The position numbers and the translations under genes were made by a program. Below the pieces are notes generated by a model, which saw only the letters and a program-made list of their open reading frames with translations, was not told where the DNA came from and did not search any database. Positions 14,251 through 59,039 of a stretch of 64,000 nt of DNA are shown here, one piece after another; the first letter of the stretch is position 1, and each line of letters opens with the position of its first letter. This DNA comes from Negaprion brevirostris (Eukaryota), in assembly GCA_030324005.1 (NCBI GenBank), contig JARDVH010000099.1, forward strand, positions 16,022,778 through 16,086,777, read 5' to 3'.

Positions 14251-14952
14251 TAAATCCAAATTACTCAAAACACAGGTCCAGGGATGCAGTGAACTTTATT
14301 GGTGTGGTCTGTTGGGACATTGAATGTGGAGGGTTTTGGGGAACGGCCAGAAAATGGTGTTGAGGTCATAATCAGATGAGCCTTGATCGTACTGAATGAT
14401 GGAGCAGCCCCATGGGCCAAATGGTTCACTCCTGCTTCCAATTCTTATGATCTTATCACCCCATGAATGAAGCTTCCCACTCTGCACTTGATGCAACACA
14501 ATCAGTATAGGCACTTCTTTATCAATGTGTTTACACATTGATTTTAAAAGAGATATTTAGTGCATGGCAAACTTAAGGGAAAAATTATTTAAAAAACAAT
14601 ATTCTGCATCACACATTAGGAGTGGGTAAACAAGAGATGCTGCATGGCTTTTTGTATAGAAGATATATTCTGGACTGTTAATTAGCAATTGAATGTAACA
14701 CCAATTTTTCTGTGGGGGGACAGCAGGCCAGTTAAGATAATCCTGATAGCCTAGGGTGCTCGTGGGAGGAAATGTGAAATGGAAAAGGCAACATGTCGCT
14801 CGTGAAAGACAGAAAGCACAAACGTGTATCTCTGTAGCACCAAGTACTTCTGAAGTGTCTTATTTCGTGTTATGGTTCCAAGCTAAGGAAACCAGAAATT
14901 ACAGATAACATGACATTGCTAAATGTAGTACAGATCACTGCCTAGTGCTTAC

Positions 14953-15173
14953 CTCATGAGCATGTTTAGAGAAAGTGTCAGCACTATATAACATGGCTGC
15001 TGTTCGCTCTTCCAGTTCACTCAGTTTCTGTCCTCTTTCATCAAGTGCTATCCTGGCCCGTGCCAGCTCGCCTGCAACACCAGACGCTGCTCCTTTGACC
15101 CCTTCAATTCCACCAGTCCCTGGGATATGTTGCGCCAGGCTCCTCGAGGGTTTACCTGCTGCGGATTCACCGA
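14953..15173 (-). CDS. STXBP5: Tomosyn-1 coding exon (221 nt) encoding most of the VAMP-like R-SNARE motif
   Basis: aaaccag|TC GGT...CAT GAG|gtaagc; FGESAAGKPSRSLAQHIPGTGGIEGVKGAASGVAGELARARIALDERGQKLSELEERTAAMLYSADTFSKHAHE; zero-layer Arg codon at 15034-15036. Confidence 0.97.
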
Positions 15174-15719
15174 CTGGTTTAAAGGAAAAGTAGATTTTTA
15201 GTACAGAAGTAAAATATGACACAGGTAAGATTGGTTTCTTGAGGCGGGGGCAGGGGAGTACAAGTTTTGAAAATAATAAATGTTGAGAACTCAAAATTGT
15301 GTGAAGTCCATATCAAGTTTTTAAATGAAAATACCAGAAATAGTTTTTATTTCTGCTAAGTTGTGGCGATAGTTGGTCCACTTCCAATAAAGAATGAGCT
15401 GGAGTGAATGGCTGCCTTTCTTCTTTTCTCCAGCAGGGTTCTTTAATCCTGACTGTAGAAAACCAATGGATCATTGCAGAGTAACGTTTCAAGCTCACCT
15501 TTAGCCAACATATACAACACTATTGAATGAAACAATATACTATCAAATTCTAGACCTACACCAAGGAGATTCGATTGATACTGCCAATATAAGATGGTCA
15601 TAAGAAAGTGTAGTAGGTGTATACCATTAGGCAACTACTCTGCCATTCAGAAAAATTATGGCAGATTTTACTGTGGTGTAAACAGCACTTTTCTGCTCGT
15701 CCCCCCATAATTCCCAACT

Positions 15720-19859: not shown

Positions 19860-21550
19860 CTACAACACCTTTTGCATCCTTAGGACGTTTAGGAGTGAAT
19901 TGGGAAGCATAGATTGGACTANNNNNNNNNNNNNNNNNNGAAACATGGTTGCAGGGTGACCAAGACTGGGTGATCGATATTCCCGGGTATTCAATGGAAT
20001 ACCTGGGAAGATATTCCAAAGGGGAAAGAAGGTGTGGTATCGCTATTAATCAAGGAAGGTTTCAGAGAAGTGCTGGCATGTGACATAATAGCAGTGAATA
20101 GTGACTTGGACTCATTAAATTTCTGCATGGTACTGTACTGCACGGTACAGCCAATGCGATTCCCTTGTTCAAAAAGGGAGAAAGACAGAAGACAGGGAAC
20201 TATAGGTCAGCTAGTTTAACATCTATTATTGGTAAGATGCTGGAGTCAATAATCAAAGAGGAAATAGTTAATCATTTAGGAAAGCTGTACATAATCAAAC
20301 ATAAAAAAACCCAGAAAGTAAATCACATTTGACAAACTTGTTCAAATATTTTGAGGATGTAGTAGGGAGTGTAGATAGGGAGGAACCTGCCGATGTAGTG
20401 CATTTAGATTTTCAAAATGCACTACATCGGCATTTTGGAATAAGTTGGTCATTTCCAGAGTTGAGAAATGTACCTAGTGGAGTACTGCAGGGATCAGTTC
20501 TTGTCCTGCAATTGTTTGCTATTTATATTAATGATCCGCAGGAAGGAATAGAACGTAAGGTTTCCAAATTTGCTGATGATACGAAGATAGATGGAAGGGC
20601 AGGTTGTAACGAGGATATTGTGATTCTGCAATGGCATACAGATAGATTAGGTGACTGGGCAAAAACCTGAAAAATGGAGTTTAATATGGGGAAGTGAGGT
20701 CATGCACATTGGTAGGAGGAATCAAAAGGCAGATTATCTAAATGGAGAGAAACTGCAAGTGAGTGAAATAGAAAGGGATCTAGGTGAACCAGTACATGAA
20801 TCACAAAAAGCTAGCAAGCATGTCCAACAAGTAGTTAAGAAGGTAAATGGCATTCTGGCAAAAGGGTTGGAGTTTAAAAATGAGGAGGTTTTGTTGCAAT
20901 TGTACTGGGTAAAGNNNNNNNNNNNNNNNNNNNNNNNNNNNNNNNNNNNNNNNNNNNNNNNNNNNNNNNNNNNNNNNNNNNNNNNNNNNNNNNNNNNNNN
21001 NNNNNNNNNNNNNNTTGTTGCAATTGTACTGGGTACAGTTTTGGTTCCCTTATCTTAGAAAGGATATGGTAACATTGGAGGCAGTCCAAAGGAGATTCAC
21101 CATGCCAATTCCTAGAGTGAGAGGGTTGTCCTACCCAGAGAGACGAAAATGTCGGGTCTGTATCCCTTGGAGTTTAGAAGAGTGATGGGTGGCCTTATTC
21201 ATACATATGGCTTGATAGGACTTGACAGGGTAAATGGTGAGATGTTTTCACTAATGGGACAGTCTCAAACAAGGAGGCATAGCTACAAGATAAATGGTCA
21301 GTCATTGAAAACTGAGGTGCACAGAAATTTCTTGTAGAGGATGGCGGATCTCTGGAATTCTCTGTCCCAAAGAGTAGCGGATTATTAGCAGTGCTTAAAA
21401 TAGAGGTGGATAAATATTTGATAGATGAAGGAATAGGGGGCTATGGAGAAATAGCACAGCAAGGAATTGAGGCCTGCATAGATCAGCAATGATCGTACTG
21501 AGTGGTGGGGCAGGCTTGAAGGCTTATACCTGCTTCTGTCTCTCATGTTG
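19860..21550 (+). mobile_element. Internally deleted CR1 LINE ORF2 (endonuclease fragment, RT, 3' end)
   Basis: LTNLFKYFEDV..DVVHLDFQNA..SGVLQGSVL..IYIND..SKFADDTKI; GLYPLEFRRVMGGLI. Confidence 0.9.
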
Positions 21551-42790: not shown

Positions 42791-43632
42791 AAATCCAAAT
42801 ATTTTGATTGTTTGTGTCTCCAAGGTTTCTGACTTGAGAAAGTAACCAAACCAATTATTTCAGATATCAGCAACTGCATGCGATTTGCTTTATTTTGTAG
42901 TTACCAGTTAACTTTTGAATCTGGCAGGGGATTTGCCAAAGCTAAGAAGCTGGAGTTTTCAGGAACATTTAATGCATTAAGCAGAGCTGTTCTGAGTAAA
43001 GTTCACAAAATTAGTTTGAAACTTTCACAAGCTAGGTCAGACTTGTTTAGTTCCCACAATGGCACAAAACAGATGGTAAAAGCCCACTAAGTGCTATGAA
43101 GAACATTAAAGCTGATCGTTGATTCATGGCCACGAATACGGCTATGCACATATTATGATTGATATCCCCTTTCAGCTGTTCACCAGCCTGCTTTTCAAGA
43201 GAGGATCATTCCACAAGTTGTAAGGTCAAGTAAAGTACACTTTCAACGTGCAGCTTCAGAATTTATAAATTGGACTCCAAAATAAACCATTATTTCAACA
43301 TGTATAATGCCTATAAAAAAAGTATTTCATATCTTAAAGGAATATCATCCCTATTAAAAGCTAGTAAATAGCTCACATTAATGAACACTTCAATACTCCA
43401 AGTTAAGATACATTGATTTATGCTGCAAAGCCCCCAGTCCGCTGAAATCAATGAGCAACAATAACTTATAATTGCTCGAGGTGCTTCATAGGAGGAGCAT
43501 TATAGAACATAATAGGACACTGAGCCACATTCAGAGATATTAAGTCAAATGACCAAAAGCTTGGTCAAAGTTGTAAGCTTTCAGGGGTGCAGTTCTGTTG
43601 GAAGGTTGTAGGGCTGTACATGATTAAACAGA

Positions 43633-43678
43633 GAGGAGGAGGAGGAGGAGGAGGAGAAGGAGGAGGCGGCAGCGGAGA
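43633..43678 (+). repeat. (GGA)n microsatellite
   Basis: gaggaggaggaggaggaggaggagaaggaggaggcggc. Confidence 0.9.
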
Positions 43679-44133
43679 GGCCTGAAGGCATTTCAAAAAC
43701 CAGGATGAAAATTTTGAAATTGAGGCGCTGCTTGAATAGGAGCTCATTTAAATGTGAGCACAAGGGTGATGGTTAAGACATGGGCAGCAGAATTTTAGAT
43801 GACAGCAAGTTTGTGGAGGGCACAACGTAGGAGAGAGCAGCTGTGATGGACTGAAATAATGATGTCGATATGCCGGCGTTGGACTGGGGTAAACACAGTA
43901 AAAAGTCTGACAACACCAGGTTNNNNNNNNNNNNNNNNNNNNNNNNNNNNNNNNNNNNNNNNNNNNNNNNNNNNNNNNNNNNNNNNNNNNNNNNNNNNNN
44001 NNNNNNNNNNNNNNNNNNNNNNAGCAGCTGTGATGGACTGAAATAATTATGTCGATATGCCGGCGTTGGACTGGGGTAAACACAGTAAAAAGTCTGACAA
44101 CACCAGGTTTAAGTCCAACCGATTTATTGGATA

Positions 44134-44181
44134 GTAAACTCACTAGCTTTCGAGGTTATCCCCTTCGTCAAGTGAACTCAC
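44134..44181 (-). ncRNA. Second hammerhead copy with C3>U core substitution
   Basis: Minus strand gtgagttcac TTGACGA a gggg ataa cctc GAAA gc TA gtgagtttac. Confidence 0.55.
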
Positions 44182-44220
44182 CTGACGAAGGGGGGTAACC
44201 TCGAAAGCTAGTGAGTTTAC
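44172..44220 (+). ncRNA. Minimal type I hammerhead ribozyme motif (Penelope-associated), intact core
   Basis: Stem I gtgaactcac/gtgagtttac, CTGACGA at 44182-44188, stem II gggg/cctc, GAAA at 44203-44206, palindromic AGCT stem III, cleavage triplet CUA ending at 44210. Confidence 0.7.
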
Positions 44221-45439
44221 TATCCAATAAATCAGTTGGACTTAAACCTGGTGTTGTCAGACTTTTTACCATGGACTGAAATAGTCAGGTCTAGAGGGAT
44301 ACAAAGGTAAGGACAAGTCCATGGGCAGCAGACAATAGTGGGGACAAAATGGGGCAATTTTATGAATGTGGAAATTGTTCGTCTTAATGACGGAATGACA
44401 GCTCATCTCAGGATCAAATGTGACATCAACATTGCAAACAGACTGGTTTAGACTTGACAAGTGGCGAATGGAGGGGAATAAGTCAGGACTCAGGAAATGA
44501 AGCTATAAGTAAGTATTCCCAATAGTTAATTGGAGGAAATTTCTGTTCATCCACTAGTGAATGTTGAACAGTCTGATAATTTAACAACTGCAAAGACGAC
44601 AAGAAAGGTGGTGAGGTATAACAACGGACAGTTAATGGGTGCTGGCCTTACTTCTTCTTCTCCAGACTAAGATACTGTTAACCTAAAAGCAATATCTCAA
44701 GAAGGCCAGCTGTTTCTTCTTAGTCCAGACAAACATCCGTGACCTCAATCTATTAAAGAGACGAGGTTACTTGACATACCATTTCCTCTGGCTAACCACG
44801 AGCAATTCCATAGGAGATTCACTAGCATTACATATCTAACACATTTGAAAAGTTTGTTAAAAAAAGCTAAACATGATGATATATTGAGGTCTGACCAGAG
44901 ATGCAGAGTCCCACTATTCTCACGTGACAAATCATTTCACAATTTACACAAGAAATACTACAACTTACCACCACTGAGGAGATATCTGCCACTGATATCC
45001 TGAGTGTAAGAGTGGAGACAGAATATAATTATTCAGTCTCTACTTAGATAATTTATTTACCTGTGAGGACTAAGACTTGCATAAATACCCAGAAAATAGT
45101 GCATTTTAGTAATTTCGACTGTTTACATTCCAGTTCTATTGATTATTGACATTATAAATAATTAATGGAGTTTTCAGCATTTCTCACGGTGAGACAGAGG
45201 TATGTTTTATAATGAATGGAATATCTGTGATCCAGTGAAAAATGCATTATTTTGGTGGTATATTACTCAGTAAAAAATTATAATGAAAAGCAGGTAAAAA
45301 TAATTGCATCTAGAANNNNNNNNNNNNNNNNNNNNNNNNNNNNNNNNNNNNNNNNNNNNNNNNNNNNNNNNNNNNNNNNNNNNNNNNNNNNNNNNNNNNN
45401 NNNNNNNNNNNNNNNTGCATATAGAATTTTAAAAATGCT

Positions 45440-55557: not shown

Positions 55558-56905
55558 CTGACAAAGAAAGTCAACATGTTACCACAAAGAACACAATGAT
55601 AAGGGGGTTAAGTTTCCATTTGTTGAACTCCATTAATGCAGAAGAACATCTCAAGTCACTTCAGAGCCAAAACAGGCAAAAATGGACAGAAATAATTGCT
55701 CAAGAAAACAAAGTTACTCTGGAAAGCATTTGGGTCACAAAGGATCAGAATTTCATCACAGTGCTATGGGAATAAATGGGATGCCCGAGCAGCATAATGT
55801 CAATGTTTGTGGAACATTTCATCTTGAGATGGAGAACAGGTCAGAGAAACCACAGGGGATTCATAAGCCTGTTACAATCAATCAGAAAAGGCTTCCCTTT
55901 TTTTTGCTCCACTGCAGCAAAGTTTTGGAAGCCCTCAAATGAAATATTTTAGCTTTTTTTGATTCTTAAACCTGCCTAATGGACTGGGAGAACATTGCTG
56001 CATGACTGTACTTGAGGAGGAAACATTGGTCAGATTCTTAATGCACATAGAAAGTATATCAAAAGCCAGTTTCTTCTATTCAAGTCCATTCTTCCTGAAC
56101 ATTAACGCAGCCAGAGTCCATCCCTTTGCTACATTAATTCTCACGTCAATCTATTCTTATGATAAATTCTCACATTGGAATGCATTCATCTAGTATGTTA
56201 TGTCTTCAATCAAAGCCAAGCTTCTTTGCTACACTAATTATGCCATCAAAGCAAATCATTCTGTGTAGTAATTCATCTAAAAACCCACCTCTCTCATGCA
56301 GTACTCATCCTACTGAAGCCCCTCCCACCAGGACATTTAATTCCCAAAATCCTTATCTCATGATGGCAATCCAAGATAACTTTTAATTATTCTAAAGTAG
56401 AATCTGTATTCTATGTGCCCGACGATACATTTCACCCCGGAGCCAGATCATAAATGAAAACATACATTTAACCAGGCATCGCACAAAGCCACATGGCAGA
56501 CAAGTGCAGGGATCTTGTAACTGAACAGCTAGTATCTCCCTGCCCTTCAATGAACTTTGGTTGAACTCCCAAAAGTCTCCTTGCAAATTTCAATTCACAG
56601 TGAACTGCATCATACTGAATATTCAGATTTAGACTCCTATTTCTGTTTCTAGTGGGACCAGCTAATCTACGGTACCGGTTACACACCAGGACAATACAGT
56701 GAAAGTCTATCCTCATGTGTCAACAAACATTGTAAAGCAATGTTGGAATTTACAGAACAAAAATGTATTTTCAGAACACTTCCAAAATATAGCATGATGC
56801 ATGTCCATCCTATCTGACAAAACAGTGCATGTTCCTCAACTTGTATCTCATGTTTTTTGCTGCATGAATTCCTGAATCTCAACAGGCAGAACCTACCAAC
56901 GATAA

Positions 56906-57036
56906 GTTATGATGTAGCAATGTCAGTGTTGGACTAGGATAGGCACAGTAAGAAGTCTCACATCAGGTTAAAGTGCAAGAGGTTTAGAAAAAGAAACCTC
57001 TTGCACTTTAACCTGGTGTTCAGAGACTTCTTACTG
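56906..57036. mobile_element. Short Penelope-type palindrome related to 44046-44270, centre deleted
   Basis: Inverted repeat at 56946-57036 (cagtaagaagtctc..aggttaaagtgcaagaggttt / reverse), one-sided extension, TSD AACGATAA at 56898-56905 and 57037-57044. Confidence 0.75.
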
Positions 57037-59039
57037 AACGATAAACTTACTTCTAGGCTTCTTCAACAATTCACAAAGCTTGTGTTCAAAGTGACCATGA
57101 TATAAAAAAAAGAGACATACGAAATCCAGCTACTTAGAACAGACAACCATGATCAGCGAAGAAAACAGAATGTTTAGTCAGAGTCCAAAGACTGAATCAG
57201 GAGAAAAGAGCAAAGAAGCCTAGTTTCTTCAATCTTGAAAGGAGTCCAGGATGGATGCCTCAGAGGTAAACCAAACTAAAATAGATGTTATCATTAAAAT
57301 ACTATCTCCTCCAGTGGTCTAATGACATGCAACCCTCTGCTGCCAGCAAACACTTGGGCTGGACTGATCATTAAATTTTTGCTGATCTGTCTGTTTTATG
57401 AGGCCAACATAGGAGTTGTCATCACCTGGTTGATAATATAAGAGACAGCGAATGTTGATTCTCCTGCCAAGTGGAATATTCTCCATTGAAGCTTCAGCTT
57501 CCTACCTTAAATAAAACTGCTCAACCTATTTAACACAAGCACCCTCTTATAGAGCAGCTATTGAAACAAAGTCACTCAAGAGCAGTTCCAAGCATTATGC
57601 AACCAAAGCGTGCAGCTGTAGTAGACTATTTTTAATTGTTCATGTGCAAAGATAAAAGGGACCCATTGAGAATGATTTCAATAGCTGATGCGATGTATAG
57701 TAACTTCAAAATCCAAACATAAGACAGAAGTTTGTATCAGCGTGAGATGACTTACTTAGATATGAAGAACGTAGTCTTTTCACAGACTCAGAATATAAAC
57801 TAGAAAGACCACACATGCAAGAAGTCACCGTCAGCATGCCTTAGGACGCAGTAGAAAAAAAGCACAACACCAAAATAATAATTTGGCTGTAATAACCTGC
57901 AGAACAAAACTTAGAACACAGCAACAGATAATGCAATCTGTATAAAGACAGGAAATTAAAATCAGAAATCACTGGGGCTATTTCCACATGACTTTTTCAT
58001 GGCCCCAAAATAATATTCATGATATGTAGGAAAATCACATGCTAAAGTAGAGTTCAAGCCTGAAGAATGCAGGATATTAAAAGAAAAAACCTTTTGGTTC
58101 CATAAGCTGTATTAACCTTCTCATCAGTCAGCTGACATGTATTTAATGTGTGTGTTAAAAGTTACTGGAGAACTTCAAGTTACTGAATTATAAAAGATGG
58201 AGATAAAATGGAATTAACAACTTGTGAAGAGGAGCTCAGTGCAGTAGGTAGGTCATCTTGCAAAATGGCTGTTTTGAAAATGCTCCGAGTGAACAGCGAG
58301 TGGGATTGCTCCCAAGGATGGTGGACATGGACTGAATGGCCTCCACTTCTGTTCTGCAGATTTCTAGGGTCTATGTTGAGAAGCAAGGCTGCTCCAAAGC
58401 TAGAAGTAGAAAATGACAATCCTGACAATTATGTTAAGTAGAAGCTGGGTCTGGGTAACATTCTCTGTATCTGCTGCTTCCGTGTCATATGTAAAATTCT
58501 GTCCTTCCTCACAACTGGTCAAAAGTGTCCTTCTCATTGTTTTGTGTTCTCTTGCTGGAATACCGCGATCTATTTTCAGGTATGCTTTAAGATTACCTAA
58601 TTTTTTACACTTCAACTAGATAATCTCCTTTTGAAGGCTAAAAGCACTCCATGATCCCCTGTCCTTCCTCTGACACTGGGGATCACCCTCCTGTCTCTTC
58701 TCTGCAATGCTTCCCTGGCTCAAATATTTCTCTCTCTTGTTGACCCAGAGTGAACTCAGTACTCGAGATCTGTCCATAATCAGGAACTGTTCAATCTTAG
58801 AACCATATGGTCTCCTTGCATTCACTGAAGGAGTGATACAATTCAGCACTTCACTCATTGTGGAGGAGCAATGAATGCAGTGATGGTAAATGTTAATCTA
58901 TGAGCAGTTACACATTTTTTTCTGTTTTAGCTTTAGTTGTTTCTTTTGTATCATATAAGCACAGGGGGTCACTCCTGTGTTGCCTCTATAAAGAGCTATC
59001 CAAGTAGTCTCATCTCTGGTGCCTTTTCAAGTTAATACT

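Follow-up and report, generated by a model that had tools for sequence, protein, structure and literature searches.

An intron of the tomosyn gene of Negaprion brevirostris contains a palindrome with a hammerhead core in each arm. Is this palindrome a small mobile ribozyme, a fragment of a larger retrotransposon, a regulatory RNA or an error of the assembly? We analysed it within a stretch of 64,000 nucleotides (the window) and compared it with its relatives in the genome and with public runs. The locus is an ordinary transposon scar: the smallest form of the described Penelope-like element (PLE) insertion with an inverted pLTR, a tail and a target-site duplication (TSD).

Structure of the insert

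A sequence-only reading of the window had described a palindrome with a one-sided extension of 39 nt, placed between TSDs of 13 bp. Both features are there (Table 1). The inverted repeat spans 44085-44269, and its arms (44085-44163 and 44191-44269) are 97% complementary; a second alignment of the same interval gives 94.6% over 186 columns. The palindrome folds with -164.5 kcal/mol (z -21.7), and none of 200 shuffled sequences folded as well. The whole unit of 225 bp (44046-44270) is bounded on both sides by ATGGACTGAAATA. Its arms, 131 and 93 nt long, differ from each other by three mismatches and one gap. Compared to the family majority, the tailed arm shows 4 differences in 130 positions, and the tail-less arm shows 3 in 91 plus an extra G in stem II. 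One-sided tails have been described for PLEs (PMC8557442, PMC3846280, PMC11167929).

Table 1. Coordinates of the insert, its surroundings and its host gene. Element positions are counted from the C of the core CUGA (+1).
Feature	Position	Strand	Remarks
Left TSD copy	44033..44045		13 bp, ATGGACTGAAATA
Right TSD copy	44271..44283		13 bp, ATGGACTGAAATA
Tailed arm	44046..44176	-	element +126 to -5
Tail	44046..44084	-	39 nt, one-sided; between preferred 3' ends ~+88 and ~+126
Tail-less arm	44178..44270	+	element -4 to +87
Head-to-head junction	44172..44181		arms end at -5 and -4; additional C at 44177
Minimal hammerhead core	44182..44210	+	CUGA-GA/GAAA boxes intact; on the strand opposite to tomosyn; cleavage predicted after 44210
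Minimal hammerhead core	44144..44171	-	tomosyn pre-mRNA orientation; private C3U
Assembly artefact	43836..44022		87-bp duplicate and 100-N gap; same pattern at L004
Older LINE-like relic, split by the insert	43500..44320	-	match to a second relic; repeat depth
Open frame with tomosyn R-SNARE exon	14938..15312	-	PDB 1urq_A match, E 5e-26
LLGL-domain exon	G000:C99:16113582-16113749	-	~27 kb past window end

The insertion in related genomes

A 100-N gap (43923-44022) lies beside the unit, and across this gap 43836-43922 duplicates 44023-44109 (86 of 87 positions). The duplicate is a contig-overlap artefact and the sole artefactual part here. Could the entire palindrome be an artefact too, as the sequence-only reading had considered? 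The gap and its 87-bp duplicate adjoin the unit, and none of the contigs listed covers the palindrome from end to end: among the public runs no contig crosses its centre, and runs X7 and X16 lack junction coverage. However, on both sides unique contigs of runs X1, X2, X4 and X12 continue past the flank and cover 16-34 nt of the element; those of run X8 cover 24 and 6 nt. Each such contig passes into the element once. Furthermore, the arms are not identical, the same shape recurs in many gap-free copies, and the TSD is consistent with an insertion. So is an empty site, which had been suggested as something to look for in relatives. In run X17, which is 6.4% diverged, a contig (record 17) connects the left flank, which ends at 43866, with the right flank, which resumes at 44303. 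The 12 letters between these flanks have the length expected for an empty site and presumably contain a single TSD copy. Junctions in independent runs together with this empty site mean that the insertion is real, and the chance that the palindrome is an artefact is negligible.

The insertion postdates the split from X17 and is common to several related genomes. It had been called young. Yet both junctions already occur in runs that have diverged from the window by 2.5-3.4% in the flanking sequence. In run X7 the flanks show no differences from the window.

The parent element

Upstream of the core, the native sequence is a 3' UTR that leads into a GIY-YIG C-terminus. Four longer copies (L157, L133, L152 and L168) connect the endonuclease end with this pLTR, and L160 holds the RT (YIDD), a CX4CxxC linker and the start of the endonuclease. 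The linker reads QPCHSNLCKTC in L160, L167 and L171; a CX2-5CxxC linker before GIY-YIG is given as a mark of Neptune/Nematis in PMC8557442. Past the tail, the sequence runs on as an open reading frame with an ATG at +125 (L273, L274). Hence the proposed Penelope origin is borne out: in longer copies the pLTR is continuous with GIY-YIG and RT coding sequence. In L157, a copy that extends into endonuclease coding sequence, this inverted tail-less arm is present too.

The RT, linker and endonuclease come from separate broken copies, and a full-length intact parent was not seen among them. When Pfam was applied to the broken pieces, GIY-YIG was matched in one of two (E 0.008, below the cut-off) and in none of the three pieces of another set. 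Because Pfam support is weak or absent, the PLE assignment rests on motifs and structural hallmarks. By motif, the unit is assigned to an abundant Neptune-type Penelope-like retrotransposon, a label that does not separate Neptune from Nematis.

One piece of a different kind was found on the - strand at L274:1480-1700 (G000:C25:109297504-109300538). Here a tail-into-ORF segment is joined to the pLTR at about -67, a permuted or tandem-like junction.

Copies of the unit in the genome

A search with the whole unit returned 2,361 first-look candidates, of which 40 were scored and are near full-length matches. Every one of the 28 distinct loci aligned from the best-matching units is a palindrome, and the centres vary. 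The top BLAST matches measure about 203-234 bp, each with its own TSD. GTGAACTCTCCATTCAC, read on one strand or the other, forms the centre of six of the 28 units, and this recurrent centre occurs in both orientations with respect to the tail (L002, L004, L010 and L022 against L003 and L005). We dropped these matches as proof of a fixed-length family. The set is biased by the query, and therefore two pattern samples were drawn instead.

The core has 93 exact matches and the downstream 37-mer has 1,390. Sample 1 contains 90 of the 93 core matches; the three omitted were already in the whole-unit set. Sample 2 contains 90 loci among 100 listed of the 1,390 37-mer matches, all on contig C1. A search with 80 nt of DNA, in which common words were skipped, gave seven candidates and is left out of the counts.

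An inverted arm is present at 45 of 90 loci in sample 1 (35 gap-free, 10 with a gap) and at 34 of 90 in sample 2 (24 gap-free, 10 with a gap). Plain copies number 27 and 18, and the 5' end falls into a gap or contig end at 18 and 38 loci, respectively. An assembly gap lies at the junction or 5' end of 28 of 90 and 48 of 90 loci, so the gap-free sets lean towards short units. Short-read assembly breaks at such palindromes: roughly half of the loci in the samples lie at a gap.

Unit size is a continuum from 110 to 310 bp in gap-free copies and extends further across gaps. All junction (fold-back) pairs of the gap-free inverted copies are different, 35 of 35 in sample 1 and 24 of 24 in sample 2. 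Variable fold-back points had been named as the sign of an ordinary truncated Penelope end. Together with the parent coding sequence, they support the truncated Penelope insertion, which was the first of the two origins suggested for the unit. Two cores are present in 7 of the 35 and at least 3 of the 24 copies. A TSD of 10-15 bp flanks 27 of 34 units in sample 1.

The window itself contains a second stub of another subfamily at 56906-57036 (noted as 56898-57044). It consists of a tail and an inverted arm without a core and has an 8-bp TSD, AACGATAA.

Ends, tails and arms

The 3' ends of both samples form two peaks, near +88 and near +126. Plain, non-inverted copies likewise end at either position, hence both are priming sites. 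A tail on one arm and not on the other is the rule: 30 of 34 units in sample 1 (p 3e-6) and 25 of 29 in sample 2 (p 3e-5), or 55 of 63 together, are built this way, where chance would give about half. This count retains two units with tails on both arms, L072 and L101, which span gaps or nested copies. Other arrangements exist: L017 (G000:C146:4145307-4145556) is symmetric and breaks the one-tail rule with two tailed arms, and L071, L205, L221 and L260 have a tail on neither arm. Of the 37 units with one tail, 22 (16 of 22 and 6 of 15) have a tail-less arm that includes more 5' sequence than the tailed one. Sample 1 requires one core, which biases this direction test; 6 of 15 is the result of the less biased sample.

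The 5' ends fall between -3 and -17 in 41 of 55 (p 5e-10) and 7 of 42 cases (p 0.02). This cluster, which includes the 5' ends of both window arms, lies about 30 nt below a TATA-like TTTATAT at -38..-32. BLAST ends at +15/+16 result partly from the variable stem II, and 14 real reference copies led to nearly the same ends. At the ribozyme cut site there are 3 of 42 5' ends (p 0.62). We rejected ribozyme-cut RNA as the template, as 5' ends are not enriched at +26..+31.

The two arms of a unit share subfamily or private variants in 15 cases, compared to a mean of 4.5 and a maximum of 11 in 2,000 shuffles. In the window, the arms share a variant that is found in none of 75 sampled copies. The native sequence contains a mini-hairpin, GAA-CTCTCCA-TTC, at -15..-3, where the ends cluster. 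Some head-to-head junctions (L042, L043, L050, L109) contain short tandem or templated inserts, which we take to resemble polymerase-theta end-joining.

The hammerhead cores

Two hammerhead cores that share their centre had been proposed. Both are present, 10 bp apart and with 44172-44181 in common. The + core has the CUGANGA and GAAA boxes, stems I and II, a palindromic stem III and the NUH site. The - core has the features of a minimal type I hammerhead (descriptor in PMC4209133) except for U3: it begins with TTGACGA and not with CTGACGA. This change is private to the window, as none of 25 sampled copies has T at that position. C3U probably weakens a hammerhead core.

A stem I of 10 bp can indeed form on either strand, but it is not a native feature. 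The native 5' strand of stem I is ATTCAC in 30 of 52 cores, whereas GTGAACTCAC in the window is the reverse complement of -5..-1, followed by one C and then -4..-1. Hence the long stem is a product of the junction. Stem II and loop II occur in 34 variants among 52 cores (L002-L030, L129-L157, L178-L267), and the flanking pLTR is far steadier. This suggests either many source elements or rapid local change; a highly variable stem II is known from PLE hammerheads (PMC4209133). An Rfam scan returned no match to a hammerhead family at E<=10. Its four hairpin-type matches all score under their own gathering scores, and we discarded them as chance.

A transcript that switches between a hairpin and a ribozyme had also been suggested. 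For the whole transcript, however, the hairpin is better than a forced hammerhead fold by 54.0 kcal/mol on the + strand and 60.7 kcal/mol on the - strand, and whichever strand is transcribed, synthesis of the complementary (antisense) arm comes first. A switch is therefore unlikely. Both ribozymes are predicted to be locked in the hairpin and silent in the intron, because the two mirror-image arms pair with each other.

Origin of the palindrome

Very probably, the unit arose in one insertion and consists of two short, head-to-head copies of the pLTR, the hammerhead-bearing end of a Neptune-type PLE. These copies were likely put together anew at the target and not taken from a palindromic master. 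While family membership, variable junctions, the one-tail rule, the TSD and the empty site are observed, the steps of the process can be proposed as follows. The element protein would nick both target strands about 13 bp apart, and each target 3' end would prime reverse transcription inside uncut element RNA. One start near the start codon (+126) would yield the tailed arm, and another start 39 nt earlier (~+88) the tail-less arm. Both cDNAs would run to -5/-4, likely the 5' end of the RNA below the TATA-like box, and end-joining would then unite the two cDNA ends. The hammerheads would be passengers from the 5' UTR of the element. A transcription start near -5/-4 is suggested by the TATA-like motif. 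Family statistics and the in vitro findings described in PMC11167929 point to priming at two sites on two strands. Centre deletions, gene conversion, the mini-hairpin at -15..-3 and assembly gaps all confound this mechanism. Deletions of the palindrome centre after insertion could contribute to the variety of junctions and to the outcome of the direction test, and gene conversion could be another source of variants shared between arms.

Alternatively, the mirror half could stem from snap-back or self-priming of one cDNA (or from an antisense template) and could have been trimmed later by centre deletions. PMC3846280 proposes self-priming on an antisense template, the native mini-hairpin coincides with the end cluster, variants are common to both arms and several centres resemble microhomology deletions. 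We still regard this origin as unlikely, though it deserves to be taken seriously. The recurrent centre is seen in both orientations, and plain copies end at both priming sites. Moreover, the tail-less arm is often the longer one, and thus a simple snap-back of the tailed cDNA is insufficient. A stand-alone, non-autonomous palindromic ribozyme mini-element, retrozyme-like and with a fixed unit of about 225 bp, is very improbable. Full-length palindromes with their own TSDs among the best BLAST matches and the repeated centre variant speak for such an element, but that set was picked by the query itself. In the samples that are blind to palindromy, sizes form a continuum and all junctions differ; just 7 of the 35 gap-free inverted copies in one sample and about 3 of the 24 in the other have two cores. 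Furthermore, there is no tandem array at the locus, and the sister stub has the same shape without a core. The independent mobilisation once suggested for the unit does not agree with arms that continue into coding sequence, and the variable fold-back points largely refute it. Harder still to believe is that the insert has been domesticated to regulate tomosyn, as an intronic ribozyme or RNA switch. The insert is kept in several related genomes and lies in an intron of a neuronal gene. However, it is missing from a 6%-diverged genome, the pre-mRNA strand carries the C3U core and the fold penalty is 61 kcal/mol. Cores on opposite strands make a dimer in cis impossible, and minimal PLE hammerheads are reported not to cleave as monomers (PMC4209133).

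Is priming at two ends obligatory whenever PLEs integrate? A dimer of the protein would then start reverse transcription once per nicked strand, and many copies would be 5' UTR run-off products of a promoter-started, uncut mRNA instead of random truncations. We find this conceivable, at slightly less than an even chance. If it were true, thousands of shark stubs would map the transcription start and both RT starts to within a few bases, and the long-unexplained inverted pLTR would be accounted for.

Comparison with known systems

Insertions of EN+ PLEs have been described as containing an inverted, 5'-truncated pLTR, a one-sided tail of 30-40 bp and a TSD (PMC3846280, PMC8557442). Like Pen2a_Av (PMC3846280; scheme in PMC8557442), our unit has head-to-head pLTRs, a tail at one end, a TSD and assembly gaps. 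We find continuity between pLTR and ORF, an inverted copy, a tail at one end, and a TSD with an empty site. Unlike the described insertions, the window unit is wholly without an ORF and its arms are only 131 and 93 nt long. A C-terminal GIY-YIG with cysteines between motifs, the CX2-5CxxC linker and the pLTR hammerhead are shared with Neptune/Nematis as portrayed in PMC8557442. The same source calls the formation of inverted pLTRs an open question, for which the one-tail rule and the 5'-end cluster provide testable predictions, a modest lead.

Pairs of hammerheads on opposite strands have already been ascribed to truncated PLEs: PMC4209133 reports dual motifs 100-700 bp apart in Schistosoma mansoni. 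In contrast, the cores in the window are only 10 bp apart and one of them has C3U. For PAc (Poseidon, Anolis), PMC11167929 describes cleavage and extension of both strands in vitro, with two RT starts that delimit the tail and a ribozyme that cleaves only with protein and is dispensable for insertion. By the proposed mechanism, our family would resemble PAc in its two internal RT start sites, in the cutting and extension of both strands and in not needing the ribozyme cut. In PAc, however, RT starts 111-118 nt into the ORF and the ribozyme lies at the ORF start, whereas here the distal end is at the start codon and the ribozyme in the 5' UTR.

In L1 twin or dual priming (PMC2837659), two primed cDNAs are also joined head to head between TSDs. 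The products of L1 twin priming are non-overlapping inverted pieces with a poly(A) end, while the window arms copy one stretch from two fixed sites and are nearer to the dual priming proposed there. Non-LTR retrozymes (bioRxiv 10.64898/2026.07.22.740005) are similarly protein-free, bear hammerheads and derive from pLTRs, but they are described as head-to-tail tandems with ribozymes on the same strand. We rejected this identity for the window unit, whose arms are inverted and which has no tandem units at the locus. A SINE/MITE-like stand-alone element was rejected as well, as copies share no fixed length or junction. In the main text of open-access papers, we found no description of the shark stubs or of twin priming in PLEs; Repbase/Dfam or subscription papers may cover them.

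Host gene and flanking sequence

The R-SNARE exon fixes the host gene and its strand (-). With this exon below the unit and the LLGL exon above the window end, both on the - strand, the insert lies inside tomosyn, which confirms the intron assignment made from the sequence alone.

The insert was also said to split an old L2. The left flank matches another LINE-like relic in the window (81% over 42 nt and 79% over 39 nt), its translation reads ...LHKLAVI*NSAAHVLT, and repeat depth is high at 43516-43569. The relic is LINE-like and probably an L2. An 18-bp segment at window position 43469 is missing from the window and present in runs X1, X2, X4 and X8. Elsewhere in the window, a short palindrome at 20388-20432 (45 columns, 89%) lies within a degraded LINE RT relic and is probably a small local inversion.
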